A stretch of 64,000 nt of DNA from an uncultured Gammaproteobacteria bacterium (lineage in GTDB: Bacteria > Patescibacteriota > Microgenomatia > Levybacterales > UBA12049): the NCBI GenBank assembly GCA_964416505.1, contig CAYQEJ010000001.1:77774-141773 (forward strand), in the 5' to 3' direction. The translations under genes were made by a program, and so were the position numbers. The notes beneath the pieces are model-generated. The model saw only the letters and a list, made by a program, of their open reading frames with translations, was not told the origin of the DNA and did no database searches. Below, piece after piece: positions 26,400 through 53,022 of the stretch (position 1 is its first letter; the number at the start of each line of letters is the position of its first letter).

Positions 26400-26404
26400 A
26401 ACAT

Positions 26405-27217
26405 ATGAAATTGAAACACCAAAAAAATAAAAGTGATAATATAGAAAATACTAGCACTCCAGGGGTCACTAAAACGCCTCAGGAAGAAATAAATGTAACA
26501 GAAGCTATGCCAAGACGTTCCCGTTTATCAAAATCGAGTTTTCGCAAATCCAGGAACACTATGATTCTTAGCATATTGGGAATTATTGCAATTCTTTTCC
26601 TGTTGCTGCGATACGGTATTCCCTTAATAAGTGACGCCAGTTTTATAGTGGGACGAGTAACTAGCTCTCCTGACAAAAAAACTATTACAGAAAACGATAA
26701 GTTCCTAGCTAATCCCGACATAGACTTGCCAGAAAAAGCTACAAAAGAAGACCATATAACTATCTCTGGTACTTCTTTAGGAGGAGACAAAGTTAAAATT
26801 TATGTTAACGGAAGCTTTGACAGCGAGGCAGATATCAATGAAGACAGATCATTTGAAGTAAGAATCAAGTTATCCGAAGGTGAAAATATCATTAAAGCAA
26901 AAGCAATTAAAGATAACGGAGAAAGTGAATTTTCAGATTCAGTTATTGTGTCATATATAAAAAAAGGGCCTGAACTTTCCATAGATTCACCAACGGATGG
27001 ATCAGAAATCAAAAATACTAATCCTATTGAAATAAAAGGAAAATCTGATCCAGATACCACAATTACAGTAAATGATTTTCAAGCGGTATCGTCTAGCGAC
27101 GGAGCATACACTTATCTCTTAACACTAAGGGATGGAGGAAACGATATAAAAGTAATTGCTGTTGATTTAGCGGGAAATAAAACTGAGAAATCTATTCACG
27201 TGAACTATTCTCACTAA
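26405..27217 (+). CDS. Membrane-anchored protein with two bacterial Ig-like (Big) repeats
   Basis: Basic N-terminus, one TM (ILSILGIIAILFLLL), then two ~80-aa repeats (…ITISGTSLGGDKVKIYVNG… and …IEIKGKSDPDTTITVNDFQ…) with beta-sandwich-like periodicity. Start is uncertain: ATG 26405 (5 nt after the tRNA) or ATG 26507. Confidence 0.5.
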   Translation: MKLKHQKNKSDNIENTSTPGVTKTPQEEINVTEAMPRRSRLSKSSFRKSRNTMILSILGIIAILFLLLRYGIPLISDASFIVGRVTSSPDKKTITENDKFLANPDIDLPEKATKEDHITISGTSLGGDKVKIYVNGSFDSEADINEDRSFEVRIKLSEGENIIKAKAIKDNGESEFSDSVIVSYIKKGPELSIDSPTDGSEIKNTNPIEIKGKSDPDTTITVNDFQAVSSSDGAYTYLLTLRDGGNDIKVIAVDLAGNKTEKSIHVNYSH

Positions 27218-28376: not shown

Positions 28377-29935
28377 ACTTGATCAAGAGTATAAACAGAA
28401 ACATTTGTTAACGTATTTTTGTAAATAAGTTTCCAATTTTTAAATCTTTCCGGCACTCCTCCACCCTGAACAGCTACAAAATTGAATTTATCACCTTTCT
28501 TAACATAACTATTATCTATAAACGGAAAGTTTACATAATATATATTATGAAATCCATATAAAAGAACCTTATCGTCTTCTTTTATATTTTCTTTAAACCA
28601 ATTATCTGTGTCATAGAAATCTCCAAAATTAAAGTTTAAATTTTTTGTCAAAAATTCATTCTTTGATTGTAGTCCTATAATTTTTGGTATATATCGAGCA
28701 TTCGCGGCTCCTCTATAAAATAATGTTATAAAAGCAATTAATAAAACAGTAGATATCAAAAAATTTTTAATTTTTTTTGGTTGATTAAAGATTAATATGG
28801 AAACAGCAACTGATAATACTGGTAAGTATGGCAAAATAAATCTCCCTCCCCCTGTTCTTGGAGTAAAATACCAAACCAATAGAGAAACAAAAACATAAAT
28901 TGGAATTAATTTCTTTTCTTTGTCAAATTTTTTCATATTTATTACCAGTAAAGGCAATACAATTATAAAAATTGGAGAAATTGGATCTGCAGAGAATAAA
29001 AATAAATTAATAAAATCAACGATAAATACTTTTAGGTTAAGTATTTGAATTGGGTTTCCTAAATCATATCCTCCAAAAACTGGATAGAAAGGATTTCCAG
29101 AATTTATATATGAAAAGAATAACCAGGGAAATACAGTTATAAGTGAAGAAGATAAAAAAATAAATGAACTTTTTATTTTTTCCTTTGATTTGTTTTCTAT
29201 AATTAAAAATAAAAATAAAAATATAGGTATTGATCCAAAGGCAATTAACTTCGTAGAAATTGCTAATCCAAGCAACACTCCTGATTCAACTATAAACTTT
29301 TTTTCTCTGTTTTTTAGATATTCTATAATTCCCCAGAATGCCATTACTTCATAAAATGTTCTAATTAAATCCACATATGCAACCGTTGATTCCCATGCAA
29401 CTACTAATGAACTATAAAAAATTATTGAAGCGATTATGGAACCTTTTTCATTTAAAAAATTTCTTGAAATTTTATAAACAGCCAAACTAGTCATTATTCC
29501 AAGGATAAGCTGGATAAGCTTAGGTATAATTTCACTTCCAAACATAAGACCAGGAATAAAAAGCATCTCCCCTAATTTTGGCATTAAGGAGTAATAAAAT
29601 AGTCCTCCTTGAATGTAGAAAATTTTTTGTTCCTGAATAAATATTTTTGGAATTGTTAGGTGATACCAAAGAGCATCAAAAGAAAGTTCAGGGCCTAATG
29701 CACCCACTAAATTAACTAAGGCCAGTGATAGAAAAAGCAACAAATACTTCTTTTCTTTAAATTTCTTAATATTAATTTTTGGAACATCATCTTTTTTATA
29801 CTGAAAATATGTAAAACCACCTATCAAAAAAAGGGTTGTCGAAATAAATACCCAATTCTTCTCTAAATTTCCAGATATCCCCAAAATAAAAATCAAATAG
29901 GAATAAATTCCTATCAAAAAAGCTAAAGCAAACAT
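28364..29935 (-). CDS. GT-C fold glycosyltransferase (GT39/GT83 ArnT/PMT-like) membrane protein
   Basis: 523-aa polytopic protein with an N-terminal ...ELSFDALWYH... DE/first-loop-like motif and many TM helices typical of polyprenyl-phosphate-sugar-dependent transferases. Confidence 0.5.
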   Translation of the reverse strand: MFALAFLIGIYSYLIFILGISGNLEKNWVFISTTLFLIGGFTYFQYKKDDVPKINIKKFKEKKYLLLFLSLALVNLVGALGPELSFDALWYHLTIPKIFIQEQKIFYIQGGLFYYSLMPKLGEMLFIPGLMFGSEIIPKLIQLILGIMTSLAVYKISRNFLNEKGSIIASIIFYSSLVVAWESTVAYVDLIRTFYEVMAFWGIIEYLKNREKKFIVESGVLLGLAISTKLIAFGSIPIFLFLFLIIENKSKEKIKSSFIFLSSSLITVFPWLFFSYINSGNPFYPVFGGYDLGNPIQILNLKVFIVDFINLFLFSADPISPIFIIVLPLLVINMKKFDKEKKLIPIYVFVSLLVWYFTPRTGGGRFILPYLPVLSVAVSILIFNQPKKIKNFLISTVLLIAFITLFYRGAANARYIPKIIGLQSKNEFLTKNLNFNFGDFYDTDNWFKENIKEDDKVLLYGFHNIYYVNFPFIDNSYVKKGDKFNFVAVQGGGVPERFKNWKLIYKNTLTNVSVYTLDQVWYY

Positions 29936-30023: not shown

Positions 30024-30734
30024 TCATTTTTTTGCGACAGCAATTAAAGAAATGCCAATTGGCATAGGAAATTTTTTTTCTATTTTTTTTACAACTGGAA
30101 CTACTAAATCAAAGGCTGCAACCTGCTTTTGAGTTAGCTGTATTTCTTGTCCTTTTAGATAATTCCTCACTACCCAAGTTACTAAGCCTAATGCATTAAA
30201 CAAAGAAATGTTTTCTAAGTGTAATCCTGTTTTTTCAATTTTTTTCGTAAGTTCTTCTTTTCCATATCTTCTAAAATGACCTAATTCTTTGTCCAAAGTA
30301 TTAAAAGCCCATTTGTTTGCCGGCACGAGAAGAACCAATTTCCCATCGTTCTTAAGAATTTTTTTTATGTTTCTTAAAGCTTTTTCATCTTCCTCAATAT
30401 GCTCTAATACATTTACACATATTACGCTATTAAATTTATTCAGTAATTTTTTTGGAGGATCTTTAGATATATCTAATCGATAAATTTGATTATCTTTAAA
30501 TTTTTTTTCCAAATGACTTACAAGTCCTTCATCTATATCAGTTAAAACTAGATTACCATCTTTTGCAAAATAAGATGAAATATTTCCTATCCCAGCCCCA
30601 ACCTCAATAGCGGGAAATTTTACATGCGGTTTTAAGTTCTCATATATCCATTCGTTATATCTATTTGCGCCTTTCAATACCTCCAAAGTTACAACACCTT
30701 TGTAATCTGAATTTATAACTATTTTTTTTGCCAT
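30024..30734 (-). CDS. Class I SAM-dependent methyltransferase
   Basis: Motif I AIEVGAGIGNISSYFA and motif post-I LVLTDIDEGL; about 236 aa. ATG at 30734 chosen (the ORF track uses an upstream TTG). Confidence 0.75.
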   Translation of the reverse strand: MAKKIVINSDYKGVVTLEVLKGANRYNEWIYENLKPHVKFPAIEVGAGIGNISSYFAKDGNLVLTDIDEGLVSHLEKKFKDNQIYRLDISKDPPKKLLNKFNSVICVNVLEHIEEDEKALRNIKKILKNDGKLVLLVPANKWAFNTLDKELGHFRRYGKEELTKKIEKTGLHLENISLFNALGLVTWVVRNYLKGQEIQLTQKQVAAFDLVVPVVKKIEKKFPMPIGISLIAVAKK

Positions 30735-31465
30735 AATAACCAAAGCTTTCCTCTCACCAGGAATGAGTGAAATGACATTAATATAGCGTGTACTAGACCA
30801 GCTATTCCATCAAGAAATCCAAGTTTTAAGAAAAAATTAACAAAGAACTTACCTTTAGGAAAGAAAATGATTGAAATCCAATTAACTCTCACTCTTTTTT
30901 CAAATAATTCCTCCGACCTCAAATCTGTATAAAAATTAATTTCTTTCAAAAATTCAGAGATCGATTGATGCGGATAATGCTTGATGGAATTAATAAGCTT
31001 ACCAACCTTCTTATCAGTTACCCATGTTTCATGAACTCTTCCTTTCAAACTACCTTTATTTTTATTAAATAGTCTTAAAAGCCTAATTCCTCCTGAATCA
31101 CCATGCAAAAGTGCCTTCCCCCACATAAAATCTATTCTTGGAATTAAAAATCCGGCATATTCATCCGATATAGATTCTTTTATTTCTGTAGCCAAGTCGC
31201 TATCGATCCTCTCATCTGCGTCAACAAATATCACCCATTCATTTGTGGTTTTTGAAACTCCGAAGTTTCTTTGTGCTGAAAAATCTTTATCCAAATCTCT
31301 TTTAAATACCTTAACTTTCTTAGAATCATATCTCTCAATTAAATCCAGAGTTCTATCCGAAGAATTATCATCAATTACTATTATCTCTTCACAAAATTTT
31401 AAATTCTCGATACAATCGATTATATTTTTCTCTTCATTCTTAGTTAAAACGACTGCAGAAATCAT
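30719..31465 (-). CDS. Glycosyltransferase family 2 (GT-A) protein
   Basis: ISAVVLTKNEEKNIIDCIENL... IIVIDDNSSDRT (GT2 DxD region), FVDADE; 248 aa. Confidence 0.8.
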   Translation of the reverse strand: MISAVVLTKNEEKNIIDCIENLKFCEEIIVIDDNSSDRTLDLIERYDSKKVKVFKRDLDKDFSAQRNFGVSKTTNEWVIFVDADERIDSDLATEIKESISDEYAGFLIPRIDFMWGKALLHGDSGGIRLLRLFNKNKGSLKGRVHETWVTDKKVGKLINSIKHYPHQSISEFLKEINFYTDLRSEELFEKRVRVNWISIIFFPKGKFFVNFFLKLGFLDGIAGLVHAILMSFHSFLVRGKLWLLWQKK

Positions 31466-33660
31466 TTATTATTCACCTCTTCAACTATTATATTACTATT
31501 TTCAACACTTACATAAAACTTCTTTTTTTCATTTTTATTCGAGGGGCCATTTCCCAACCACCATGTTAAATATTCGTAATTTTGAATAAAATTAGGAAAT
31601 CCACTTGCCTGATTTTTTTCAATAATATTAAAAGGTTCACCATTTGACTTTGAAACAATTTCTCTTGATGATTTAACCAACTCCGTAAAAGTTATTTTCT
31701 GATTCTTTCGGTCAGGAAACTGGTAAATATTTAAAAATGAAATAATACAAATCAATATAATCGGAAAAAATAATAATCTCTTTTTAAAACTACCCAAAAA
31801 ATAACCTAATCCAATTGCCGCTTGAGGAAAAAACATGGGCAAATATGAAGCTGAATTAGTTTTTGCAAAAATATAAAAAATTGCAGGAATAATTAAAAAA
31901 GCAAATAAAGTGTTTTCATTTGGATTTTTAAATCTACTTCTCATAACTGATATTAATAAAAAAATCATTGGTATAATAAAAATTAAAAGAGCCAAGTATT
32001 CATTTCTTACAAAATAGAATTTACCAATATAATCTGTGATAAACTTCAAGAAAGAACCCCAGCTCTCAGTTTGACTAGGATTAATAGGAGGATATCCAAA
32101 TAAAACCGCAATTCTATATACTCCCCACACAAAAAATTTGAGAGTTTGAGGAAAACCGTTTGAAAAATCGTAAATTATCATTGGAAGTAAAGTTAAAATC
32201 AAAAAAATAAATGAAAGAACTATTATTTTCAAGTCATTCTTAAAACTTAATTTCCATTTTTTATTTTTCAAATATCCGATCGCTAAAACTACGAGCACGG
32301 TAAAAGCTAAAGAAAACGTAGCTAATACAAAGTTATATAGTGCCCCAAGAATAAATATTATTAATGGAAATTTATTTCTATCTCCTTTTACCCATTTAAA
32401 AGTTAGAAAAAATAATGCTAACGTTAACAAAGGAACAAAACTCGTATGATATGGAAGTTGTGAAGAAAAAATTACAAATGGAGAAGTTGCATAAAATAGT
32501 GATGAAAAGAATGCAACTCTAGTATTGAACATAAATCTAGCTACATAATAAATAAGTATTACTACAATTGAATCCAATAAAATTGTAAAGTACGCAGGAG
32601 CAACTGGATTGAAGTCAAAAACCTTTAACAAGAATCCAAGTATATATGTCCAATATGCTCCTTGGTGTAGCCATGGATGACTTGATGCGATTCCTACAAG
32701 AGGTATACTGTGATCCAAAAGCATATCCTTAGCTGACAAATAGTACCAAGCAACATCCGGAATGAAGAATAGTAGTTCTGATATCTTATTAATCCTGAGT
32801 AGAAATGCGAGTAAAAAAATACACAACACTAGAAATGATTCCTTGTTAAATCTGAGAAATAATTCAACAACCATAGCCTTTAAACGTCCGTAGTTTTTTT
32901 TGAAGTAAAGATATCTGCTTTTCATAAATATTTTTTTTATTTCTGAATTTTGTGTTGAGCTTTTTCCTCCAAAATGCACTATCCTAACTGTTGGAGAAAT
33001 ATAATTTTTATATCCTAATTCTTTTATTCTTTTAAATAGGTCAAATTCTTCAAAATACATAAAAAAATTATCATCAAATCCATTTATCTTTTGAAATATT
33101 TTTTTCTTAATTAAAAATGCCGTTCCAGGAAGAACCTCTATAGATCTTTCTTTTCCACTTGAATTATCAAGGTAATAATATTTTTTTAAAAATTTATTTT
33201 TCCTTAAAAAGGAGCTGATAAAACTTAGTGAAAAAATAGCATAAAGTGGCGTAAGTATTCTTGTACCTTGTAATTTATAAATTTTTTTATTTTCTTTATA
33301 AAGAGTTGGTGAAACTGCAGCAACTTTTTTATATTTTTTAAAGATATTTAGAAGATTTTCAAGATTTCCTGACAGTATATATGTATCAGGGTTAAGTATG
33401 AAGACATATTCTCCATTTGCATTATCTACACCTAAATTATTTCCATTCCCATAACCTAAATTCCCTACGTTTTTTATGTATTTAATTTTAGAAAATTTCT
33501 TCTTAAGTTCTTTTGAAATATTATCCACTTCATCATTATCAACAACTATTATTTCAAAAATCTCATTATTCCATTTTTTATTTATTGAATTTATGCATTT
33601 ATATAAATTTTCCTTAGACTTATAATTTACGACTATTATCGATACTATTTTTTTCGCCAT
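31462..33660 (-). CDS. Bifunctional protein: N-terminal GT2 glycosyltransferase fused to a C-terminal polytopic (GT-C-like) membrane domain
   Basis: N-terminus IVSIIVVNYKSKENL...IIVVDNDEVDN...ILNPDT (GT2). Residues ~270-700 form about 12 hydrophobic helices. 732 aa. Confidence 0.65.
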   Translation of the reverse strand: MAKKIVSIIVVNYKSKENLYKCINSINKKWNNEIFEIIVVDNDEVDNISKELKKKFSKIKYIKNVGNLGYGNGNNLGVDNANGEYVFILNPDTYILSGNLENLLNIFKKYKKVAAVSPTLYKENKKIYKLQGTRILTPLYAIFSLSFISSFLRKNKFLKKYYYLDNSSGKERSIEVLPGTAFLIKKKIFQKINGFDDNFFMYFEEFDLFKRIKELGYKNYISPTVRIVHFGGKSSTQNSEIKKIFMKSRYLYFKKNYGRLKAMVVELFLRFNKESFLVLCIFLLAFLLRINKISELLFFIPDVAWYYLSAKDMLLDHSIPLVGIASSHPWLHQGAYWTYILGFLLKVFDFNPVAPAYFTILLDSIVVILIYYVARFMFNTRVAFFSSLFYATSPFVIFSSQLPYHTSFVPLLTLALFFLTFKWVKGDRNKFPLIIFILGALYNFVLATFSLAFTVLVVLAIGYLKNKKWKLSFKNDLKIIVLSFIFLILTLLPMIIYDFSNGFPQTLKFFVWGVYRIAVLFGYPPINPSQTESWGSFLKFITDYIGKFYFVRNEYLALLIFIIPMIFLLISVMRSRFKNPNENTLFAFLIIPAIFYIFAKTNSASYLPMFFPQAAIGLGYFLGSFKKRLLFFPIILICIISFLNIYQFPDRKNQKITFTELVKSSREIVSKSNGEPFNIIEKNQASGFPNFIQNYEYLTWWLGNGPSNKNEKKKFYVSVENSNIIVEEVNNK

Positions 33661-33661
33661 A

Positions 33662-34630
33662 TTAAAGTTTATAAATTTCCTTAATCGTTCTTTTTTTCTT
33701 AGAATTAATATCGTAAAGCTTAAGGTTTCTTATTAAATTTAATCTATCATGATGATCGTCTATAAGCGTTAGATTTCTATTCTTATCCATTGACTCTCTA
33801 TACCTGCTCTCAACGTACCCGTTCTCAACAGATATTTCATCATTATTTCTTTTCTTATCTTGTCTTATGAAAAATGCATTATTTCCAGCAGAATTACTTC
33901 CAACAAAAATGTAACCTTTGCTCTTTGCTAAATTAACAATTGCTTTAAGAGATGCACCAAAATATAAATTAGAGAAGTGTTCTTTTGTACGATCAAATTC
34001 TTTTTTATACGGCACCGTTACCTCAAATTTTTTACCAAAAGTACTATTGTATTCTACAATTAAAATTTTTGGTGAAACTGAGTCAATTTCTTTCAAAAAC
34101 CAATAATCAATTCCATCTACATCAATTGATAAAATACCTATTTCTCCTGAAAATCCTTCTTCTTTAAATGTTTTGTTTACATTTTCTAAAGTTAATTTTT
34201 TATTTATAATTTTTATTCTGTGTTTATACAAAATAATTTTTCCTATTTCTGAATTTAGAAATTCAATATGGGAATTATCATCATTAATAATCAATCCTTC
34301 CCAGTTATTATTTACAAGTAAAAATCTTGTGTTTGATTCGGAGTAATTACCCACTCCAAATTCAATAAATTTTTTATTTTCAACTTTATATTTTTTTATT
34401 AAAAATTGAATAATTCCATCTTCTCCAAATTGCGAATAAATTTTAAATTCTGCATCTTGTATGTTTTTTATCTTAGAAATATCCATGTCCATTGTGTTTT
34501 TATTTCCTATAATAATTTTTAAAGAGTCAATTTCTTTCAATATTTCTTGATGCTCATACATTAAATTCCCATAAATTAAATGTCTAAACAAATTTCTAAT
34601 TTTTTTTAGTATTTCTTTTAAAATTTTCAT
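33662..34630 (-). CDS. Hypothetical protein, possibly FkbM-like methyltransferase fold
   Basis: Soluble 322-aa protein. The weak EFGVGNYSESNTRF segment is reminiscent of the FkbM-family glycine-rich motif. No confident assignment. Confidence 0.35.
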   Translation of the reverse strand: MKILKEILKKIRNLFRHLIYGNLMYEHQEILKEIDSLKIIIGNKNTMDMDISKIKNIQDAEFKIYSQFGEDGIIQFLIKKYKVENKKFIEFGVGNYSESNTRFLLVNNNWEGLIINDDNSHIEFLNSEIGKIILYKHRIKIINKKLTLENVNKTFKEEGFSGEIGILSIDVDGIDYWFLKEIDSVSPKILIVEYNSTFGKKFEVTVPYKKEFDRTKEHFSNLYFGASLKAIVNLAKSKGYIFVGSNSAGNNAFFIRQDKKRNNDEISVENGYVESRYRESMDKNRNLTLIDDHHDRLNLIRNLKLYDINSKKKRTIKEIYKL

Positions 34631-35730
34631 GATAAATCAAGTTTTTTAATTATAAGATTAAGAAGCATATTACTACGTATTTCCCAAGTCCAATTACTTT
34701 TAATATTTTCAGAAGAATATTTTGATAAATTTTTATATTGCCTTTTATTTAAAATTTTTTTATTCAGCACTTGAGATATTTCCTCTAAATTATCTTTTAC
34801 AAAAAAACCGTTTTTACTTTCAATAATTGTTTCAATATAACCTCCCTCTCTTATGGCTACTGTTGGAACACCACATGCTTGTGCTTCAAGGGGAACTAAT
34901 CCAAAGGGCTCGTTATATGCTAAGCATATTAAAAACATTGATTGCGAATATATTTTTCTTAAAACAGAATCATCAGAAATCCATTCTTTCTCTCTTAATA
35001 TAAATCTCACTCTTGGTTTATTTTTCATGAGCTTAATTGCTTCTATCAGTTTTTCATAACCATCAATTGGATCTTTAGAACCTATAAAAAGCAGATCATA
35101 TATCTTCTTAACCTTCATTGGGTAAAAATTTTTAATATTTACTCCCATGTAGGAAATTTCACAATTTATTTTGTAAGCACTTTTTATATTTCTTTGAGTA
35201 TATTTTGAGTTTGCAATAATCAGATTTGCCTTTAATGCATTTGATCTATCTATCACTTTTCTATTTTTCCTGTTTAATTTCTCGTATAATTTCCTTTCCA
35301 TCCTTAAACCTTTAGGTATATCAAACAATTCTTCATAAGCTATTCTGAGTGGCTCCTGACAATAATATGCTGATTTTGTTTTGATGAATCTTAATAAAAA
35401 TGGGGCCTGTGTGTATTTTGATCCATGTACAAAAACGAAATCGTAACTAAGTGAATCTATTTCTTTTGCAATTTTTTTGTGAAGAATATATATCTTAATT
35501 AACTCAATCGTATCTTTATATAATTTTACTTTCCAGTTTCCCCCTGTCCATTTTCTTGGAGTAAATTTAAAAAAATATATTTTTGAAAAATTTCTATCAA
35601 TTTTTATTTCTTTTTTTTCATCTATATAATATAGATCTACAATATTTTCTTTTTTGAAATTATTGCTGAATTCCATAACAGCACGCCTTGCGCCACCATA
35701 AGGCAGTTCATGAAATACAGCAATTTTCAT
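34627..35730 (-). CDS. Glycosyltransferase family 4 (GT-B) protein
   Basis: C-terminal EPFGLVPLEAQACGVPTVAIREGGYIETI (E-x7-E motif) and N-terminal MKIAVFHELPYGGARR. Confidence 0.8.
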   Translation of the reverse strand: MKIAVFHELPYGGARRAVMEFSNNFKKENIVDLYYIDEKKEIKIDRNFSKIYFFKFTPRKWTGGNWKVKLYKDTIELIKIYILHKKIAKEIDSLSYDFVFVHGSKYTQAPFLLRFIKTKSAYYCQEPLRIAYEELFDIPKGLRMERKLYEKLNRKNRKVIDRSNALKANLIIANSKYTQRNIKSAYKINCEISYMGVNIKNFYPMKVKKIYDLLFIGSKDPIDGYEKLIEAIKLMKNKPRVRFILREKEWISDDSVLRKIYSQSMFLICLAYNEPFGLVPLEAQACGVPTVAIREGGYIETIIESKNGFFVKDNLEEISQVLNKKILNKRQYKNLSKYSSENIKSNWTWEIRSNMLLNLIIKKLDLS

Positions 35731-36554
35731 TTTTTAATTTTCTGGATGCAGATATAATCTGTTGCAAAAAATATTTTTAATATACTCATTTTAGATATTG
35801 GGTACAAATAAACAAAAACATTATACACATAATCTTTCCAACTTATGAATGGCTTATACGGAACTTTAGAAATAATATTTCCTGAAAAATAATTTTTTTT
35901 AAATAATGTTTTTAAATAAAAAATTGTTGGCTCATTTACATGCTGCTTTTTGTGAATATTATTTCGTGATTCTTTATTTACTCCCGGATAAATATTTCCG
36001 GTAAATAACTTGTTTAGCATTATAAATAATTTGTCCACGGGATAAACCCAGTATTTATGTGTGTAATCAAGATATATTTTATTTGGAGCAGTGTGCACAA
36101 TGAGTAATCCATCTGGCTTCATAACTCTTTTAATTTCTTCCATAGCTATTTCAAGTTCTTCTTTAAATAAATGCTCAAAAACATCAGAGGTAACAACTAT
36201 ATCAAAAAAATTATCTGCGAATTTTAATTTCTTAGCGTTCATCAACTTAAAATCAATTCTTTTTTTTACTTCCTCTTCCTGATACTTAATTGCATTTTTC
36301 GCTATTTTTATTCCTGCTTCCGAATAATCAATACCCATAACATTCGCTCCTAATCTAGCTAATTCAAAATCTAAGTCTCCTCTACCACATCCAATATCCA
36401 AAATTTTAGAATTTTTCTTTGGATTAATTAAATTTGCGAATTCTCTAATCGTATTATTTACAATTTTTCCTTTATGCTTATTAAATTCCTCGAAACCAAG
36501 ATTTTGTCCCAGGTAGTATTTTTTTGTATATATCTTTGAACTGACTGACTTCAT
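35727..36554 (-). CDS. Class I SAM-dependent methyltransferase
   Basis: Motif I ILDIGCGRGDLDFELA, motif II ANVMGIDYSE, DIVVTSDVFEHL. Confidence 0.8.
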   Translation of the reverse strand: MKSVSSKIYTKKYYLGQNLGFEEFNKHKGKIVNNTIREFANLINPKKNSKILDIGCGRGDLDFELARLGANVMGIDYSEAGIKIAKNAIKYQEEEVKKRIDFKLMNAKKLKFADNFFDIVVTSDVFEHLFKEELEIAMEEIKRVMKPDGLLIVHTAPNKIYLDYTHKYWVYPVDKLFIMLNKLFTGNIYPGVNKESRNNIHKKQHVNEPTIFYLKTLFKKNYFSGNIISKVPYKPFISWKDYVYNVFVYLYPISKMSILKIFFATDYICIQKIKK

Positions 36555-37774
36555 TGATTTTTGAAGATTTTGTAAGTTAGGAAGATTAATAAAGGAATCT
36601 CAAAGATCACAGAAATAATCATTGCGTAACCTGCGCCGATTATACCAAAACTTTGAATGAAAGGAATTATTGTAATTGATAAAACCAAAAGCCTTAAAGA
36701 TATTGAAATCGTTGAATAAAATTGTTTTTCTAAAGCAAAGAATAAAGAAAAGAAATTTCCAAACATTGTCCTTAAAATTCCATAAATCGAAAGAATTCTT
36801 ATTAAACCAACAATCTCAGTCCAATCTTTTCCCAATCCAACTTTAACAATTGGTTCTGCAAAAATAAATAATATTATTCCGGATGATATAGCAAAAAAGG
36901 ATGAAGTTAGAAAGACTTTAACAAATGCATTTGATAATCTTTTAAAATCCCCAGATAATTTCGAATAAACAGGAAAAGTAACTTTATTTACTACTTCAGC
37001 AATCTCACTAATAGTAAATGTGGAAACTTTATAGCCCATCTGATAGAAACCTAAAGATCCCGTACCTAAAATTTTTCCAACTAACATATTATCCAGATTT
37101 TCTGACAAATAAATAAATATTCCTGTTAGCGTTATCCATGATCCTCTCTTAAATATTTGTTTTATTTTTGTAAAATCAAAAATAAGAATTGGTACAGGTT
37201 TAAATAAAACAAATGAGAGGACAACTTCTAGGACTGCTGATGCTATTAGTCCATAAGCAAAACTAGAAGCATCTTTTGTATATATAGCTAAAATTATTAC
37301 AGATGCAGATTCTACTAAAAATAAAATCAGTCTTAAGTAAAATTCTTTTTTGAATTGGATTTCTTTTTGAATTTGAATTATAGATGGATTAATAAAACCT
37401 TTAATGAGCGGAACAATGGCTATCAAATAAATTAATTTTTGCGATTGTGATGAATTAAAAAAATCAGAAATAAAAGGTGCTAATATTATAAGTACAGTAA
37501 AAATAATAAAACCTCTTAAAATCGAGATTATCCATGCAGAATTAATATATTCTCTCCAATCATCTTTTTTTTGAACTAAAAAAACATTTATTCCCGTCTC
37601 TGTAATAATTTCCAGAAAAGATAAAACAAGAGTTGCTACACCAAAAGATCCAAACTGAGCAGGAGTCAAGATTCTAGCAAGTATTGCAAGCCTTACAAAT
37701 GTTATTCCACGAGTTGAACCTCTCAAAAGAGTCATCCAGGAAATTCCTCTTATCGCATGCAATTTATAACCCAT
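36551..37774 (-). CDS. Polysaccharide biosynthesis protein / oligosaccharide flippase (Wzx, MOP superfamily)
   Basis: 407 aa with 12 predicted TMs. N-terminal ISWMTLLRGSTRGITFVRLAILARILTP matches the Polysacc_synt family N-terminus. Confidence 0.65.
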   Translation of the reverse strand: MGYKLHAIRGISWMTLLRGSTRGITFVRLAILARILTPAQFGSFGVATLVLSFLEIITETGINVFLVQKKDDWREYINSAWIISILRGFIIFTVLIILAPFISDFFNSSQSQKLIYLIAIVPLIKGFINPSIIQIQKEIQFKKEFYLRLILFLVESASVIILAIYTKDASSFAYGLIASAVLEVVLSFVLFKPVPILIFDFTKIKQIFKRGSWITLTGIFIYLSENLDNMLVGKILGTGSLGFYQMGYKVSTFTISEIAEVVNKVTFPVYSKLSGDFKRLSNAFVKVFLTSSFFAISSGIILFIFAEPIVKVGLGKDWTEIVGLIRILSIYGILRTMFGNFFSLFFALEKQFYSTISISLRLLVLSITIIPFIQSFGIIGAGYAMIISVIFEIPLLIFLTYKIFKNQ

Positions 37775-37792
37775 ATAAAAATTATATCAAGT

Positions 37793-40330
37793 TTACTTCT
37801 TATAAACTGAAATATTGAATGGGACTGTAATAAGAGAAGCAAGATAGAAATCCTTATGATTCATTTTGTATGGTTTTTTAGAGTAAAAAACACCAATCCT
37901 TCTATATCCAAGTTCGTCTAGTTTATTCTTAATTTCTCTTTTTGGGGTTTTAAGATAAAAACTCGGAGCTATCTCATCATCTGTAATTACAACATATTCT
38001 GGGTATTTAGAAGATCTTTCATCAATTAGCTGATATTTATATTTGTAATTAAAATTTATATTTGATTCTCTAAAATAATATTCCTTCTGAATTAAATCAG
38101 GAATTCCTTGATAAATTGGAATATTTTCTAAGCCAATAACGGATCCTTCTGGTACATTCTCTTCTATCCACTTAGAAGAAACTGCCTGAGGGCTTATTGC
38201 TCTTTTCGCATTTATCCACAACAAAGATTCAAATATTTGAGAACTTAAAACAAAAAACACTACTATAAAAAATAAAAACTTTTTCTTTTTATATACTTCA
38301 TTTAAAAATGTTACAGAAATCAAAACTATAAACGGAGATAAGACTAATGCTCTATTTGTAGATGCAAATATTTGGAGAGGAATTAAACTTAGGGTAAAGA
38401 AAATAAAAATAATTAACATGAATAATTCAATTTTAATTTCACCAATTTTACCTTTAATTATCTTATTCGAATATATAAACGTTAAATATATTAATGAAAT
38501 TATTGTCAGGGGAATCATCAGATGGCCAAAAATAATTGGATAATGTTTTGTAAGCAAATAAGCATATGGATTAAGTTCAATGTTAAAATTTTGAGTTGTT
38601 GCGGGACTCTGAATGATATTTTCATAAAGAAAAAGGTTTATATTTCCATTTCCAAACAAAGTATCTGGAATTCCAAATAAAAAAATAGTTACTATTAGCA
38701 CTATTAATCCACCAAAAAAATATTTAATTTCTTTAATTTTGTTATTGGAAAATAAAAAATAGGATAGTCCATACAAAGGAATTAATGGAATCGCACTTAC
38801 CTTCACCGCAAAAGACAAGCCAACTGGAATTGCTAATAAAATAAATTTCTTTCCCGTTGGATTTTTTAAATAAATAAGCATCGACAGCAAAGATAAGCTA
38901 ATAAAAAATAAGAGGGCTATATCATATTTAAAATATCCACTTAACATTAAAAAAAGAGGACTGAAAACGAACAATGAAATTGTAATTTTTTTTGAAATTT
39001 TTAAAAAATCTGCAATTTTGTAAATTAATATTATCGATAAAAGTCCGTAAATTATTGACTGAATTCTTAAAATAATAAAAATGTTTTCTCTATTTATTAA
39101 ATTTTGAACTTGAACTGAAAACGGATCAATTATTTTCAAAAAAGCAAAAGGAGCAATATAGAATCCACTGATTATGAAATTAAGCATAGTCCCATTTGCA
39201 GAACCAAACATATTTGGAGTTCCGTGAATGAAAGTATCTGCTACAGCACTTAATTGATGCCATTCATCCATGTGATAAGGATATGGATGATTAATATTTG
39301 GTATCCCAAATTTTATTGTTGAAAAAACTAAAAAAACATAAATAAAACAAATAAATATGAGAAATCTATAATTTCTAATATCTTTTTTTATTTTTCTTTT
39401 TTTTAATCTATTGAAAATGCCAGATAGTGTTCCAGTTAATACCGCAAGATCAGCAGTAAATTGTAATAATGGTAAATAAAAAAATGCCTTGTAACTCTTT
39501 ATGTATTTATAGTTTTTTCGAATTGCCCAATATACATACATTAAAGACAAAATTAGAATAAATAATAAAAGAGATTTTGATTTTTCTATTATCGAAATGA
39601 AAAATAAATAAAATAAGAGGAAATACCTCAAATATAATAAAATTACATTCGTCCGAATATTCATAGCGCTCCCGTCTCCCTTTGCATAACCAAAGAATTG
39701 CTTAAATGCTTCAATTATATTTTTTCTCTGTGGCCAACTAACAATTGCATTTTTTACGAACTTAAATTTAAGTTTTTTTAGTTTTAACTTTTTTGCAAAA
39801 TGTAAATCTTCTCCCCTAGCCATCCACTCTGGATACATTCCAGCTTCTTTCCAAGCATTTTTTTTAAATGCAATCGAACGAGATGACGGCAAATAGTTTT
39901 CGGGGTCCAATTTATCAGGCATTATACTCGTATAAATCCCTAAACATTTTTCAAAAATGTTTTTACTAAGAGGCTTGTAATAACCTGCAACTACATCTAC
40001 ATTTTTATCATTAAAGGGTTCGGAGATTTTTTTAACCCAATTCTTATCAAGTATACAATCTGAATCTGTAACTAAAATTATATTATTTTTTGCAATTCTT
40101 ATTGCTTCGTTTCTTCCTTGAGAAATATTTCCAACTAAAACCTTTACTCTAATATTTATTTTTTTATTTACATTTTTAAATTCATTGATAATTTGAACAG
40201 TGTTGTCTTTAGAACCTCCGTCAATAATTATTACTTCATCTATTTTTACTGATTGGGCTTTCAAACTCTTTAAAAAATTCAAAATCGACCCTGATTCATT
40301 CAAAACCGTTGTTATAAGAGTAATTTTCAT
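37793..40330 (-). CDS. Bifunctional protein: N-terminal GT2 glycosyltransferase fused to a large polytopic membrane domain
   Basis: N-terminus KITLITTVLNESGSIL...VIIIDGGSKDNT...VTDSDC (GT2), followed by more than 15 hydrophobic helices over ~600 aa. 845 aa. Confidence 0.65.
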   Translation of the reverse strand: MKITLITTVLNESGSILNFLKSLKAQSVKIDEVIIIDGGSKDNTVQIINEFKNVNKKINIRVKVLVGNISQGRNEAIRIAKNNIILVTDSDCILDKNWVKKISEPFNDKNVDVVAGYYKPLSKNIFEKCLGIYTSIMPDKLDPENYLPSSRSIAFKKNAWKEAGMYPEWMARGEDLHFAKKLKLKKLKFKFVKNAIVSWPQRKNIIEAFKQFFGYAKGDGSAMNIRTNVILLYLRYFLLFYLFFISIIEKSKSLLLFILILSLMYVYWAIRKNYKYIKSYKAFFYLPLLQFTADLAVLTGTLSGIFNRLKKRKIKKDIRNYRFLIFICFIYVFLVFSTIKFGIPNINHPYPYHMDEWHQLSAVADTFIHGTPNMFGSANGTMLNFIISGFYIAPFAFLKIIDPFSVQVQNLINRENIFIILRIQSIIYGLLSIILIYKIADFLKISKKITISLFVFSPLFLMLSGYFKYDIALLFFISLSLLSMLIYLKNPTGKKFILLAIPVGLSFAVKVSAIPLIPLYGLSYFLFSNNKIKEIKYFFGGLIVLIVTIFLFGIPDTLFGNGNINLFLYENIIQSPATTQNFNIELNPYAYLLTKHYPIIFGHLMIPLTIISLIYLTFIYSNKIIKGKIGEIKIELFMLIIFIFFTLSLIPLQIFASTNRALVLSPFIVLISVTFLNEVYKKKKFLFFIVVFFVLSSQIFESLLWINAKRAISPQAVSSKWIEENVPEGSVIGLENIPIYQGIPDLIQKEYYFRESNINFNYKYKYQLIDERSSKYPEYVVITDDEIAPSFYLKTPKREIKNKLDELGYRRIGVFYSKKPYKMNHKDFYLASLITVPFNISVYKK

Positions 40331-40398: not shown

Positions 40399-41115
40399 GT
40401 GGAAATGAAAAAACATAAAATTGACATTATTCTTCCGGCATATCACGAAGAAGGAAATATAGAAAAAGTTATAACAGATATTAAAAAATTTGTTAAAACT
40501 CCTTATTTAATAACGGTAGTAATTCAGGATAAAAACGATCCGACACTTACTGTTTTAAAAAAAATAAAAAAAGGATCTCCAGGTATAAATATAGAATTCA
40601 CTCGAGACGGGAAAGGAATACTTAAGGCCTTTAAGGAGGGCTTTAGATGCACTAAAGCACCGATAATCGTAACCATGATGTCTGATTTGTCGGACAATCC
40701 CCGAGATATAGACAAAATGATTAGAAAAATCGATGAAGGATATGATCTTGTATGCGCTAGTCGAAACAGTGGAAATGGAAAAAGAATTGGAGGACCTAAA
40801 TTTAAAGGGTTTCTCTCGTGGCTTGCGTGCATTAGTTTGAAATTTTTAACAGGAATCAATACAAGTGATTCCACCAACGCATTTAAAGTTTTCAGAAGAT
40901 CTCTCCTAGAAAAAATTGATATTAAAAGTGAACAGGGATTTGAGATGCCCCTAGAACTAACGGTAAAAGCCTATGAAAAAGGATTTAAAATCACTGATGT
41001 TCCCACTATATGGAGAGACAGAAAAAGCGGAGAATCTCAATTCAAACTTTGGAAAAATATTCCTTATTATCTTAAATGGTATATATATGGAATTAAGAAC
41101 AATTTCTTCAGATAA
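40399..41115 (+). CDS. GT2 polyprenyl-phosphate sugar synthase (DPM1/GtrB-like)
   Basis: IDIILPAYHEEGNIEKV, MMSDLSDNP (DxD-equivalent), small soluble GT-A of 238 aa typical of dolichyl/undecaprenyl-phosphate mannose/glucose synthases. Confidence 0.75.
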   Translation: MEMKKHKIDIILPAYHEEGNIEKVITDIKKFVKTPYLITVVIQDKNDPTLTVLKKIKKGSPGINIEFTRDGKGILKAFKEGFRCTKAPIIVTMMSDLSDNPRDIDKMIRKIDEGYDLVCASRNSGNGKRIGGPKFKGFLSWLACISLKFLTGINTSDSTNAFKVFRRSLLEKIDIKSEQGFEMPLELTVKAYEKGFKITDVPTIWRDRKSGESQFKLWKNIPYYLKWYIYGIKNNFFR

Positions 41116-42929
41116 TGATAAAAAGAATTTTTAAAAATTCCGATATCCATTTCCCTCTTTTTCTACTATTTTTTTTATTAATTGAAATAACTAATTTAAC
41201 AAAAAAGTTAGATTCAAAAATAAAAATAAACAATACTCTGGATTTCTCCTGGTCAATAGATATGATTCAAAGATTTTATTCAGGTTTTATAGCGGGTCGA
41301 GATTTCATATTTACTTATGGACCTTTATATCAATTTATAATTTCATTTCCGGGAAACTTATTAAATACACCTTCTTTTTCATCATTAATATTAAGTAGTC
41401 TAACTCTTAAACTAATTTTGCTAATTTTGATTTTCCTGTTTATAGAAAATTTATTTTCAGAAAAGAAATCAAAACTAATTTTTTTTATTTTTTTAAGCTC
41501 ACTGACTTTAATATATTCAGATTCCAATATGTCAATAAGGATTATATCTCCTTTTATTTTCTCTCTTTATTATCTTAAGTATGTTGTTCAAAAAAAGGGA
41601 AATAAAATTCAAATAGCGATAATCCATGCAGTACCCTCAATAATGGGGCTTTATATTTTTGAACTTTTTTTAACTTGTATAGTAATTATATTTTTATTTT
41701 ATTTATTTACTGCTTTAATTAATAAAAATAAATTTAAATTCAATATTCAAAAGATAATAAAAGGATTGGGAAGTTTATCGATAATATTAATTCTCGAAAT
41801 CATATTAAGCTCTATATTATCTGGGAACCTAGATTATTTTTATGATTCCATATTAACTGTCTCAGATTACAAATATATTATGAATATTCCCTTTTCCTTG
41901 AATCCTTATTTCCTATTGTTAATTTTTCCTTTTATTTTATTTTTAATTTTTATAGTTAAATTTAAAGAAAAAAAGTATAGCTTATTATCTATCATTTTAT
42001 TCATAACTGCGTTTGTTGAAATAAAATCTTCATTAATTAGAACTGATGAGGGACATATCTTACAGTCTGTTATTCCGAGCATAATAATCTTAATTTATAT
42101 AATTTATCAAAGATTTAAGTTTAATCGTTTATTTTTAGCAATCTCGATAGGCATAATCACACTTAATTTATTTTCAAACATCCAAACTCTTACTCCTAAT
42201 AATTTTTTGAAATTATATGATTTAACTCGCGAAAATACTAATTTCTTTGATTTATACAAAATTTATCCCCAATTTTATACAAAATCGAACCTAGATAAAA
42301 TAACTCTGACAATAAATAGTTCTAAATCAATCTTAATTTATCCTTATGATAATTTTCTTCTAAATATTAATAGAAAAACATTTAATACTTATTCTTTACA
42401 ATTTTATGATTGGTCCGGCTCTAAAGTTGAAGAAAAAACTGTAGAAAAAATTGCTCTAAATCCTCCAAATAAAATAATTTATATGATCGACAAAAAAGGT
42501 GTGATTCCGTTAGATAATATCCCAAATATTTCAAGAAATCCTTATATAAATAAATGGATAATAAATAATTATTCAGTAGAATCAAATAATAAAAGTTATC
42601 TTGTGCTTAAATTTGATAAAAAAGGGGCGAAATATATTAATTCTGATTGTAAATTATATGACTTAGAAATAAAAGATAATTTGTTACTATTTGAGAATTT
42701 AATCAAACCATCTAGTTACTACTTAGAAAATGATGAATACCTTAGACTACCTGTATCAACAAAACGAAATATTTTTGTATTTGAAAACTTTTCCAATGCA
42801 TCTGAAATGGAAAAATTAATAAATAGTAATATTTCAAAAGCGGAGGAAAAAGGAAAAGATAAAAAAATTATAAAGAAATTTTCAGTTTCAGTAAAAAAAG
42901 AGGTAGAAAATTCAGTTAATTGTTATTAA
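41115..42929 (+). CDS. Hypothetical polytopic membrane protein with C-terminal soluble domain
   Basis: About 12 N-terminal TM helices followed by a ~250-aa hydrophilic domain. No recognisable motifs. ATG overlaps the upstream stop (ATGA). Confidence 0.45.
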   Translation: MIKRIFKNSDIHFPLFLLFFLLIEITNLTKKLDSKIKINNTLDFSWSIDMIQRFYSGFIAGRDFIFTYGPLYQFIISFPGNLLNTPSFSSLILSSLTLKLILLILIFLFIENLFSEKKSKLIFFIFLSSLTLIYSDSNMSIRIISPFIFSLYYLKYVVQKKGNKIQIAIIHAVPSIMGLYIFELFLTCIVIIFLFYLFTALINKNKFKFNIQKIIKGLGSLSIILILEIILSSILSGNLDYFYDSILTVSDYKYIMNIPFSLNPYFLLLIFPFILFLIFIVKFKEKKYSLLSIILFITAFVEIKSSLIRTDEGHILQSVIPSIIILIYIIYQRFKFNRLFLAISIGIITLNLFSNIQTLTPNNFLKLYDLTRENTNFFDLYKIYPQFYTKSNLDKITLTINSSKSILIYPYDNFLLNINRKTFNTYSLQFYDWSGSKVEEKTVEKIALNPPNKIIYMIDKKGVIPLDNIPNISRNPYINKWIINNYSVESNNKSYLVLKFDKKGAKYINSDCKLYDLEIKDNLLLFENLIKPSSYYLENDEYLRLPVSTKRNIFVFENFSNASEMEKLINSNISKAEEKGKDKKIIKKFSVSVKKEVENSVNCY

Positions 42930-53016: not shown

Positions 53017-53022
53017 ATTAAG

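Follow-up and report, generated by a model that had tools for sequence, protein, structure and literature searches.

In three-component glycosylation systems, a cytoplasmic GT2 enzyme and a flippase work with an extracytoplasmic GT-C enzyme that uses a polyprenyl-phosphate-linked donor (PMC4944223, PMC10821137). The lactococcal PSP glycan (Wps) requires no phosphoglycosyltransferase; it is built on C55-P, flipped by the Wzx-type flippase WpsG, and then polymerised and transferred by the GT-C polymerase WpsH and the GT-C transferase WpsJ (PMC10821137). Here we describe two proteins, A and B, in each of which an intact cytoplasmic GT2 is fused to an ArnT/PMT-like GT-C membrane domain. Both are encoded in a 64-kb window (the whole stretch of DNA that was analysed, 64,000 nucleotides) from an uncultured, ultra-small, Levybacteria-like member of the Microgenomates (CPR), where they belong to a conserved chromosomal locus (~27.2-53.1 kb) for a Wzx-dependent surface glycan. 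To our knowledge, the Microgenomates (CPR/Patescibacteria) have no cultured representatives, and next to nothing is known of their envelope chemistry. A full-text search of one literature library found no publication on GT2–GT-C fusions, in keeping with their original description as poorly characterised. The reading that we favour, with moderate confidence, is that A and B are two-sided, bifunctional, optional fusions of partner enzymes from one Wzx-dependent, polyprenyl-phosphate-based surface-glycan pathway.

Gene A, a GT2 and GT-C fusion (31462-33660, minus strand, 732 aa), and gene B, a GT2 module with two TM helices followed by a GT-C and a C-terminal domain (37793-40330, minus strand, 845 aa), are open reading frames with ATG starts, and the coordinates and lengths originally given for them were exact. 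They belong to an operon of ten minus-strand genes running from 40330 to 27192, whose ends overlap or nearly abut. A Wzx-type (MOP) flippase gene (36551-37774, minus strand; PF13440, 228 bits) lies directly downstream of B, as it does in all related loci examined (L001, L002, L084-L086). Between Wzx and A sit genes assigned by Pfam to a methyltransferase (35727-36554), a GT4 (34627-35730) and an FkbM-like protein (33662-34630), all on the minus strand and with overlapping stops and starts throughout the segment 33662-36554. The operon continues downstream of A, on the same strand, with a GT2 (30719-31465), a methyltransferase (30024-30743) and a PMT_2 GT-C (28364-29935), all assigned by Pfam, and with a Wzy_C-type protein (27192-28376; PF04932, 65 bits). 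The occurrence of the flippase and the Wzy_C-type protein (polymerase or ligase type) in one operon indicates lipid-linked block assembly. The gene order B, Wzx, methyltransferase, GT4, A, GT2, PMT_2, Wzy_C was also found in the Levybacteria assembly GCA_016182185.1 (L001), and the same B-to-Wzy_C order is present in the relative loci L084-L087. At least six further GT-C-like proteins are encoded in the locus. Pfam detected no priming phosphoglycosyltransferase (PF00953 WecA/MraY-type or PF02397 WbaP-type) among the ~50 ORFs of the window that it was used to scan, which excluded the smaller ones, and no GtrA-type small flippase was recognised in the locus.

Pfam assigned the same pair of domains to both proteins. 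Residues 7-191 of A match PF00535 Glycos_transf_2 (E 7.6e-23, 81.7 bits vs a cutoff of 23.3) and residues 338-489 match PF13231 PMT_2 (E 1.5e-08, 35.4 bits vs a cutoff of 26.1); the corresponding matches in B, judged by the same cutoffs, are residues 5-116 (E 2.6e-23, 83.2 bits) and residues 421-549 (E 6.1e-12, 46.5 bits). The AF2 models of A (pLDDT 93.6, pTM 0.90) and B (pLDDT 92.9, pTM 0.88) contain a GT-A fold with the conserved nucleotide-/metal-binding Asp and an xED-type base in both GT2 domains, and their polytopic membrane domains superpose on solved GT-C enzymes, with matches to ALG12, ArnT, PMT and STT3. The Pfam pair and the models agree with the predicted arrangement of an N-terminal cytoplasmic GT2 and an ArnT-like GT-C. 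A and B are two distinct copies in one cluster, and BLASTP found no similarity between them. The term paralogous, which had also been applied to them, holds in a remote sense only, since hhalign of the family profiles gave 99% probability (E 8.6e-18) at 17% identity.

In some relatives the halves are encoded by neighbouring ORFs with a 4-nt overlap, so a single-base error could in principle mimic a fusion. The probability that neighbouring genes were joined here by a frameshift, an overlooked stop codon or chimerism of the assembly is nevertheless negligible. Full-length homologues with 38-51% identity, equal length and the same Pfam pair were recovered from many samples and sources (119 for A and 120 for B), and 57 cluster representatives among the best 150 relatives of the A GT-C are fused. 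Both proteins are recorded in NCBI, separate Logan assemblies supply the exact B sequence and an A cluster-mate of equal length, and AF2 confidence stays high across the domain junctions, at about 32845-32865 in A and about 39368-39400 in B. A stop between the domains in other assemblies had been proposed as a sign of artefact; many homologues of A and B have none, and the separate genes that do occur (L005, L008, L012, L084-L087) are clean orthologous splits rather than evidence of a frameshift. Because the catalytic motifs are invariant or at least 90% conserved across ~120 homologues of each protein, both halves of A and B are under selection.

Transmembrane topology was inferred by hand from the AF2 helices and the positive-inside rule, not taken from predictor output. 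On this basis, the GT-C modules of A and B each have 11 TM helices, with the N-terminus in and the C-terminus out, and B has 13 in total owing to two extra helices behind its GT2 domain; the count is lower than the 12-18 helices of the original prediction. The GT2 domains and Lys/Arg-rich loops would be inside, and all conserved GT-C motifs would fall in outer loops.

The cytoplasmic GT-A (GT2) domain of A (residues 1-240; 32941-33660; this and all following parts of A and B are on the minus strand) is of the WbbL/GlfT2/ppGalNAc-T-like kind, has no TM helices, and carries the conserved motifs E36-IIVVD41N, NPD92T, FEE204-205xD207 and H229. It matches PglI, rhamnosyltransferase and GlfT1 models. 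It had no match to Dpm1/ArnC/GtrB models at E<0.01, and neither sequence nor structure grouped it with polyprenyl-phosphate sugar synthases (DPMS/Dpm1, GtrB, ArnC, GacI/WpsA). The domain is followed by basic amphipathic linker helices (residues 241-272; 32845-32940; AF2 helices 241-257 and 259-269), in which S248, K255 and G258 are conserved and which, judged by charge and hydrophobic moment, probably lie on the membrane surface. Split orthologues break directly after this linker, and the alignment of stand-alone GT-C proteins to A starts near residue 266. The ArnT/ALG12-like GT-C module (residues 273-650; 31711-32844) contains a candidate catalytic loop, the first outer loop (residues 299-334; 32659-32766), identified by its conservation in 120 sequences. 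Invariant and at least 90% conserved columns read F299-I-G-D302..W305..D312 and PLVGIxSSH328xW330xH332-Q333-G334. The loop has few K/R and several D/E residues, and both D302 and D312, placed outside by the positive-inside rule, are at least 90% conserved. A small C-terminal alpha/beta domain (residues 651-732; 31465-31710), with conserved Y695/Y697/W700/G703, is probably extracytoplasmic according to AF2 secondary structure and the topology above.

In B, the cytoplasmic GT-A domain (residues 1-204; 39719-40330) has invariant D37, D42, G72-R73-N74, D89, R151, E174-D175 and W199. The following segment (residues 205-321; 39368-39718) consists of an interface helix (205-221) with a degenerate QxxRW-like sequence (QFFGYAKGD), two TM helices (227-248 and 252-277), a semi-hydrophobic conserved helix (282-308; LPxLQ290xxD294) and a Lys/Arg-rich cytoplasmic linker. 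Together the two parts form a PcManGT/HAS-like membrane GT2 module, which superposes on hyaluronan synthase over 295 residues and, over 272 residues, on PcManGT, a membrane mannosyltransferase and its best structural match among membrane GT2s, making a lipid-embedded acceptor plausible. The original PcManGT paper reportedly describes a dolichyl-phosphate-dependent mannosyltransferase. The GT-C module (residues 322-710; 38201-39367) is PMT-like, and its first outer loop carries a DE motif (residues 354-359, M-D355-E356-W357-H-Q; 39254-39271) in which M354, D355, E356 and W357 are invariant in 121 sequences; its outer location follows from the positive-inside rule. A DE motif in the first outer loop marks PMT/GT-C enzymes (PMC8698208). 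The acidic motif anticipated in this loop is therefore present in both proteins, as the invariant D355-E356 of B and as a conserved Asp of A. The C-terminal alpha/beta domain of B (residues 711-845; 37796-38200), probably extracytoplasmic and delimited by AF2 secondary structure, has a conserved IGxENxPxYQ motif and no Pfam match.

The superposition on hyaluronan synthase agrees in part with the cellulose/hyaluronan-synthase logic of the original prediction, in which the GT2 would polymerise a polysaccharide and the polytopic domain would form the channel that translocates it, as happens in cellulose synthase BcsA or hyaluronan synthase. The NCBIfam model PgaC_IcaA also aligns over B residues 2-346, albeit at 49 bits, far under its cutoff of 422. 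However, no BcsA-like channel was found: the membrane domains of both proteins match GT-C enzymes and not synthase channels, and they retain the GT-C outer-loop motifs, including the invariant DE. The QxxRW position in B, assigned by inference rather than by structural alignment, reads QFFGY against a family consensus of FFRFA, with R and W not among the conserved columns. The GT2 of A is a soluble-type domain, the GT2 module of B has only two TM helices, and the lipid-linked block assembly indicated by Wzx and the Wzy_C-type protein points away from such a synthase. Processive synthesis by A or B is thus highly improbable.

A different possibility, also contained in the original prediction, is a self-contained synthase-transferase in which the fused GT2 makes a polyprenyl-phosphate-monosaccharide that is flipped and becomes the donor for the GT-C of the same chain, equivalent to GtrB plus GtrC, ArnC plus ArnT or Ppm plus Pmt in one polypeptide. 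A cytoplasmic GT2 and an external GT-C are the exact pair of three-component glycosylation systems (PMC4944223, PMC10821137). The two TM helices past the GT-A fold of B, as in GtrB and ArnC, together with the PcManGT match, mean that the B GT2 could be a lipid-phosphate sugar synthase; the B GT-C is PMT-like with its DE motif, and the halves of split A remain adjacent and overlapping. However, the A GT2 has neither TM helices nor synthase matches, and in the B GT2 family ArnC and the dolichyl-phosphate hexose transferase model were each matched by 1/57 members, as against 57/57 for both TIGR04283 and PgaC_IcaA. In addition, two separate genes of the locus already match synthase models over their full length. 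The first, a stand-alone Dpm1/ArnC/AglJ/PgfS-like GT2 of 238 aa (40399-41115, plus strand), matched the NCBIfam models AglJ (1e-13), PgfS (2e-12), dolichyl-phosphate hexose transferase (2e-12) and ArnC (1.5e-10), making it, by sequence, the strongest candidate polyprenyl-phosphate sugar synthase gene of the locus. The second, a Dpm1-like GT2 of 241 aa (49215-49940, plus strand), matched PgfS (2e-12), AglJ (3e-07), ArnC and PpgS. B-type GT2 modules also stand alone beside Wzx with no B-type GT-C nearby in many relatives (L006, L008, L009, L084), and an A-type GT-C occurs without an A-type GT2 directly upstream (L084). We therefore consider a self-contained synthase-transferase rather unlikely, and the mechanism originally proposed is only partly supported.

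Comparison with relatives revealed both fused and split states. Splits of A and B occur exactly at the domain junction with the gene order kept: A is divided into a GT2 of 283 aa and a GT-C of 471 aa with ORFs overlapping by 4 nt in L008, and into 283 aa and 474 aa in L086/L087, and B is divided into 388 aa and 539 aa in L005. In L012, the gene directly after an A-type GT2 encodes a B-type GT-C. Besides the 57 fused proteins, the best 150 relatives of the A GT-C (counted as 50%-identity representatives) included 69 stand-alone full-length ones. Fusions of the A-type GT2 with other enzymes of lipid-linked glycans are also frequent: the partner is a WbaP-like phosphoglycosyltransferase in L017, L027, L028 and L036 and a GT4 in L013. 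Because close relatives carry the parts as separate neighbouring genes in the same order, the fusions are best regarded as optional packaging of known enzyme types, not as a new machine, and fusion is not an obligatory substrate channel. Nor is it evidence that catalysis works by a new principle: each half comes from a known family, and relatives do without the fusion.

From the domain identities, fold, catalytic-motif conservation, synteny, and fused and split states of A and B, we infer their topology, substrates and order of steps as follows. The GT2 domains would face the cytoplasm and act as inverting enzymes on nucleotide-sugar donors, and the outward-facing GT-C domains, each with 11 TM helices, would use polyprenyl-phosphate-linked donors; each protein would end in a small external C-terminal domain. 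The soluble-type, WbbL/GlfT2-like GT2 of A is probably held at the membrane by its basic amphipathic helices and most likely extends a lipid-linked glycan at the inner face. For the B GT2, with its GT-A fold, interface helix and two TM helices, the most likely acceptor is one linked to polyprenyl phosphate within the inner leaflet. Once flipping has taken place, the two GT-C domains would act outside, adding lipid-phosphate-borne sugars or transferring the glycan; that of B is PMT-like and has the invariant DE, and that of A is ArnT/ALG-like and has a conserved Asp. Single-sugar lipid donors would most plausibly come from the two separate Dpm1-like GT2 genes. Joining of operon partner genes probably gave rise to the fusions (the halves of A are directly adjacent in split relatives), which would provide co-localisation and 1:1 dosage.

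A more speculative extension, to which we assign little probability, is a closed carrier-lipid loop, especially in B, or a GT-C that helps to bring across the membrane what its own GT2 has made on the lipid. In the closed loop, the B GT2 module would load the first sugar on polyprenyl phosphate in the inner leaflet and the GT-C of the same chain would carry out the last transfer outside, releasing polyprenyl phosphate, so that the scarce carrier would return directly to the site of initiation. Either variant would account for the failure to recognise a priming phosphoglycosyltransferase or a GtrA-type flippase in the locus, and if true would represent a new coupling of both membrane faces in glycan assembly in very small genomes.

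The locus, which is conserved and has clear limits, is a candidate for the main surface glycan of Microgenomates. The fused and split states in close relatives pair particular cytoplasmic GT2s with particular GT-Cs and so act as a natural Rosetta stone; such pairings are usually hard to obtain because GT-C partners are poorly predictable from sequence. The fusions could also serve as single-chain structural targets for the organisation of inner-face and outer-face lipid-linked glycan steps.

Among known systems, the three- and four-component transmembrane glycosylation systems GtrB/GtrA/GtrC, ArnC/ArnT, CsbB or GtlA with YfhO, and GacI/GacJ/GacK/GacL share the two enzyme classes of A and B on opposite membrane faces. 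In these systems, however, the GT2 is a Dpm1/GtrB/ArnC-type lipid-phosphate sugar synthase and a separate protein, whereas the GT2s of A and B are of other subtypes and fused, with the Dpm1-like genes of the locus separate from them. PcManGT (PDB 6YV7) and the class I hyaluronan synthase/BcsA cores differ from B in that B has only two clear TM helices and no complete channel, QxxRW is not conserved, and sequence similarity to 6YV7 is confined to the first ~117 residues. Compared with GT39 enzymes (yeast Pmt1/2/4, Streptomyces and Mycobacterium Pmt), B shares the DE motif in loop 1 and has 11 inferred TM helices in its GT-C module. It lacks a PF02366 (PMT) match at E<0.01, although some of its homologues have one, lacks a MIR domain, and adds an unrelated C-terminal domain of 135 aa and the N-terminal GT2 module. 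A has ~10% sequence identity to ArnT (GT83) and ALG-type lipid-linked-oligosaccharide mannosyltransferases; it has only one conserved Asp (D302), with a variable residue in place of the Glu after it, 11 inferred TM helices vs 13, and the fused GT2. By parts list, the Wps system and the window both comprise a Dpm1-like GT2, several cytoplasmic elongating glycosyltransferases, a Wzx flippase and several GT-Cs, and the phosphoglycosyltransferase that the Wps glycan does without is likewise not seen among the scanned ORFs of the window, although all Wps enzymes are separate proteins. In Mycobacterium tuberculosis Ppm1 (Rv2051c), a membrane domain and a polyprenyl-phosphate mannose synthase are naturally fused, whereas other actinobacteria encode these two parts in separate genes. 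Although its partner is an Lnt-like acyltransferase rather than a GT-C, and its GT2 is a true Dpm1-type synthase, Ppm1 is a precedent for the optional fusion and fission of a GT2 and a polytopic membrane partner within one envelope pathway.

Two minus-strand open reading frames were found where the original prediction had placed them: 31462-33660, encoding a 732-aa protein (A), and 37793-40330, encoding an 845-aa protein (B). In both, an N-terminal Glycos_transf_2 (GT2) domain and a C-terminal PMT_2 (GT-C) domain exceeded the curated Pfam cutoffs (A, E = 7.6e-23 and 1.5e-08, respectively; B, E = 2.6e-23 and 6.1e-12), and this domain pairing is far beyond chance. About 120 full-length homologues were listed for each protein, with 38-51% identity, the same Pfam pair and a narrow range of lengths (704-771 aa in the A family and 836-903 aa in the B family). 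Their source names were Candidatus Levybacteria, Roizmanbacteria, Microgenomates or Patescibacteria, and the two families were found together on the same contigs. NCBI records exist for both window proteins, and Logan assemblies contain the exact sequence of B as well as a cluster-mate of A with the same length. Separation of the domains in other genomes had been proposed as the sign of a fusion artefact. Separate genes do occur in relatives, but with more than 100 fused homologues there was no sign of an artefact, and the chance that assembly or sequencing errors generated the fusions is negligible.

Where the halves are split in related loci of other genomes, the breaks fall exactly at the domain junctions and gene order is unchanged. 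Locus L008 encodes an A-type GT2 (283 aa) and an A-type GT-C (471 aa) with a 4-nt overlap, together with a lone B-type GT2 (308 aa), and the A-type halves in L086/L087 (283 and 474 aa) also overlap. A methyltransferase gene lies between GT2 and GT-C in L085. In L084, the A-type GT-C is unfused and follows a methyltransferase-GT4 fusion, and a lone B-type GT2 (312 aa) adjoins Wzx. L005 (Levyibacteriota) has a fused A and a divided B, whose 388-aa and 539-aa parts flank a 512-aa gene; in L012 an A-type GT2 (279 aa) is followed directly by a B-type GT-C (670 aa), and the B-type GT2 is alone in L009 and L006. Next to the split genes of L012, an 876-aa protein (L012:10220-12850, minus strand) combines an N-terminal GT2 with a C-terminal part of roughly 650 aa that has no Pfam match, and might represent a third type of GT2 fusion.

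The GT-C domain of A, used as query in an exhaustive HMMER search, gave 174 cluster representatives at E<=1e-30. The best 150 of these comprised 57 fused proteins (scored by a match beginning at residue about 260-290), at most 69 stand-alone full-length proteins and 18 fragments. The stand-alone count is an upper estimate because P0244, the best-ranked protein of this class, begins 38 nt away from the edge of its contig and may be a truncated fusion; P0245, P0246 and P0252 lie inside their contigs and were confirmed as stand-alone GT-C proteins. Because relatives carry split halves and the ranking mixes fused with stand-alone forms, the GT2-GT-C fusion is common and real, but optional.

AlphaFold2 models, computed from alignments of about 120 sequences, reached pLDDT 93.6 and pTM 0.90 for A, and 92.9 and 0.88 for B. 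Their secondary structure and the positive-inside rule were used to derive the anatomy and topology of the two proteins. A consists of a GT-A domain (residues 1-240; conserved EIIVVD41N, NPD92T, FEE204/205xD207 and H229), two basic amphipathic helices (241-272), 11 predicted TM helices with the N-terminus in and the C-terminus out (273-650), and a small alpha/beta domain (651-732) that would lie outside. B starts with a GT-A domain (1-204; invariant D37, D42, GRN74, D89, E174-D175 and W199), which is followed by an interface helix (205-221), two TM helices (227-248 and 252-277), a conserved semi-hydrophobic helix (282-308; LPxLQ290xxD294), a Lys/Arg-rich linker, 11 predicted TM helices (322-710) and a putative outside alpha/beta domain without a Pfam match (711-845). 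The helix number of 12-18 originally suggested was thus revised: A would have 11 helices and B 13. A catalytically dead GT2 domain was considered unlikely, because the GT2 motifs are invariant across the family.

The N-terminal parts of both models match GT-A/GT2 enzymes, and the membrane parts resemble GT-C enzymes of solved structure (for B, Pmt4 at 23.7 over 373, Pmt2 at 23.4 and STT3B at 21.9). With the predicted topology, all strongly conserved GT-C motifs would be located in outer loops: D302, D312, H328, W330, H332-Q333-G334, Y404-H-T, Y497-D498 and Q505-T506 in A, and the invariant M354-D355-E356-W357, K468-Y-D470, K510, D556 and N659 in B. The acidic motif of the predicted first outer loop, anticipated for a GT-C active site, is conserved in both proteins, as D302/D312 in A and as the invariant D355-E356 in B. 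A loop-1 DE pair and 11 TM helices are described as hallmarks of Pmt-type GT-C enzymes, and ArnT uses the equivalent Asp (PMC8698208).

The fused GT2 domains had been taken for polyprenyl-phosphate-sugar synthases, whereas model matches point to other subtypes for A and probably also for B. The GT2 domain of A matched PglI, rhamnosyltransferase, GlfT1 and HpsN-type models of NCBIfam, and no Dpm1, ArnC, GtrB, PgfS or AglJ model at E<0.01. When one genome per species was scanned, many phyla had the A-type GT2 as an ordinary stand-alone GT2, at about 30% identity over roughly residues 6-270. Its fusion partners elsewhere were a WbaP-like priming phosphoglycosyltransferase (CoA_binding_3) in loci from Ignavibacteria, from Bacteroidia and from an unclassified marine MAG (L017:2958-4946, L027:9983-11935, L028:9992-12040 and L036:8169-10139; a Bac_transf domain is additionally present in L017 and L028), and a GT4 in a Chloroflexia MAG (L013:9932-12142). 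This stand-alone occurrence and the variety of fusion partners suggest that the A GT2 works in the cytoplasm on the extension of lipid-linked glycans.

For B, a 57-member subset of the family was scanned against NCBIfam. TIGR04283 and PgaC_IcaA were matched by all 57 members, and ArnC and the dolichyl-phosphate hexose transferase model by one member each. Since all scores were far under the equivalog cutoffs, the B GT2 is not a member of any of these named families. The alignments were longer than the GT-A core of roughly 205 residues and so probably extend into the interface helix and the TM helices. The QxxRW motif is not conserved: its presumed position reads QFFGY in B itself and FFRFA in the consensus. 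With only two clear TM helices, the GT2 module is not a complete synthase channel, and a processive synthase that passes its product through a channel is extremely unlikely. By contrast with the fused domains, two separate proteins of the window (40399-41115 and 49215-49940) gave whole-length matches to AglJ, PgfS, dolichyl-phosphate hexose transferase, ArnC and PpgS, which makes them, as judged from sequence, the obvious candidate suppliers of polyprenyl-phosphate sugars. A self-feeding arrangement, in which each fused GT2 would make the donor for its own GT-C as originally proposed, appears unlikely, and what probability it retains is mostly on account of B.

A and B had also been described as paralogous but distinct. 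No BLASTP match was detected between them, which ruled out recent paralogy. The two family profiles nevertheless align colinearly over both domains (99% probability, E = 8.6e-18, 17% identity), so the copies are distinct and remotely related; they would either share a very ancient origin or have arisen as separate fusions of parts that are remotely related.

Both genes belong to a tight minus-strand operon running from 40330 to 27192 in the order B, Wzx (PF13440, 228 bits), methyltransferase, GT4, FkbM-like protein, A, GT2, methyltransferase, PMT_2 GT-C and Wzy_C (27192-28376). This gene order is that of the Levybacteria assembly GCA_016182185.1 (L001: epimerase, small GT2, B, Wzx, methyltransferase, GT4, A, GT2, GT-C genes, Wzy_C). 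The FkbM-like methyltransferase gene between GT4 and A (33662-34630, minus strand; weak Pfam match, E = 2e-4) is missing at that position in L001 and is therefore a lineage-specific insertion. Just past the Wzy_C end, a secreted protein with Glucodextran_B-type domains (26372-27217, plus strand) is syntenic in related loci (L001:19413-20132, L083 and L084) and may act as a surface protein that carries or binds the glycan.

The glycan locus forms a low-GC island at 28-54 kb (25-30% GC versus 33-39% in the flanks). Beyond the operon genes, it encodes the two Dpm1-like GT2 proteins and four additional polytopic proteins of GT-C-like type, together with an epimerase, a carbamoyltransferase, a further GT4 and a further methyltransferase. 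The flanks contain housekeeping genes (DnaE, GatAB, MurT, ATP synthase, FtsW, IleRS and ParB). Among the window ORFs scanned, no WecA- or WbaP-type priming enzyme was found. Besides A and B, the window encodes six polytopic GT-C-like proteins (826-1953, 28364-29935, 41115-42929, 44038-45336, 45760-47541 and 51682-53058), assigned to GT87; PMT_2; no Pfam or NCBIfam family (two proteins); PMT_2/PTPS_related; and LA_3751-like. This density of outward-facing glycosyltransferases is unusually high for a small genome.

Of the two Dpm1/ArnC-like proteins, that at 40399-41115 (plus strand) has 238 aa and no TM helices, and the start of a 604-aa polytopic protein without a family match (41115-42929, plus strand) shares base 41115 with its stop; the two look like an unfused GT2 and membrane-partner pair beside the fused ones. 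A NodU/CmcH-type carbamoyltransferase (47528-49147, minus strand) and several SAM-dependent methyltransferases (30024-30743, 35727-36554 and 50908-51675) suggest that the glycan is carbamoylated and methylated. A tRNA gene (53023-53096, minus strand) overlaps the first 12 codons of the 458-aa ORF at 51682-53058 (minus strand; TTG start at 53058), which more probably begins at Met15, near 53016. A 493-aa ORF (62392-63873, minus strand) matched only the C-terminal half (532-1019 of 1021) of an AcrB/RND transporter model; it may encode an RND-like protein of half size or be a split gene. Microgenomates-type clusters also occur in TPA co-assembly bins titled 'uncultured Gammaproteobacteria' or 'uncultured Pseudomonadales' (L003, L006-L009 and L012); gene content and closest homologues suggest that these titles are placeholders or wrong.

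Taken together, A and B are probably bifunctional glycosyltransferases that work on both membrane faces within a single surface-glycan pathway, dependent on Wzx and based on polyprenyl phosphate. At the inner membrane face, the GT2 of A would extend a lipid-linked glycan and that of B, encoded next to Wzx in all relatives examined, would glycosylate a lipid-embedded acceptor, probably linked to polyprenyl phosphate. The GT-C domains would act outside with lipid-phosphate-linked donors, and fusion would co-localise the partner enzymes and fix their ratio, with no channel. It is very unlikely that B couples the first transfer, onto polyprenyl phosphate, to the last, in which polyprenyl phosphate is released; if true, the carrier lipid would be recycled or flipped on the spot.

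The two halves come from known superfamilies, and their combination is widespread in Microgenomates and is not a new kind of system; in a single chain, it is a variant for which we found no description in the literature searched. A full-text search for characterised GT2-GT-C fusions or CPR glycosylation returned no paper describing such a fusion: 'fused' in PMC4944223 and PMC10821137 refers to cloning constructs or GacJ-GacI fusions, the Caldicellulosiruptor GT39 is not a fusion (PMC6151902), and fusions are unmentioned in a review (PMC8035078). The fusions can serve as a Rosetta stone for pairing GT2 with GT-C partners, and they offer a way into CPR envelope chemistry. The closest described logic to that of the window locus is the lactococcal PSP pathway, in which the glycan is built on C55-P, flipped across the membrane by a Wzx-type flippase and then subjected to GT-C polymerisation and transfer (PMC10821137).
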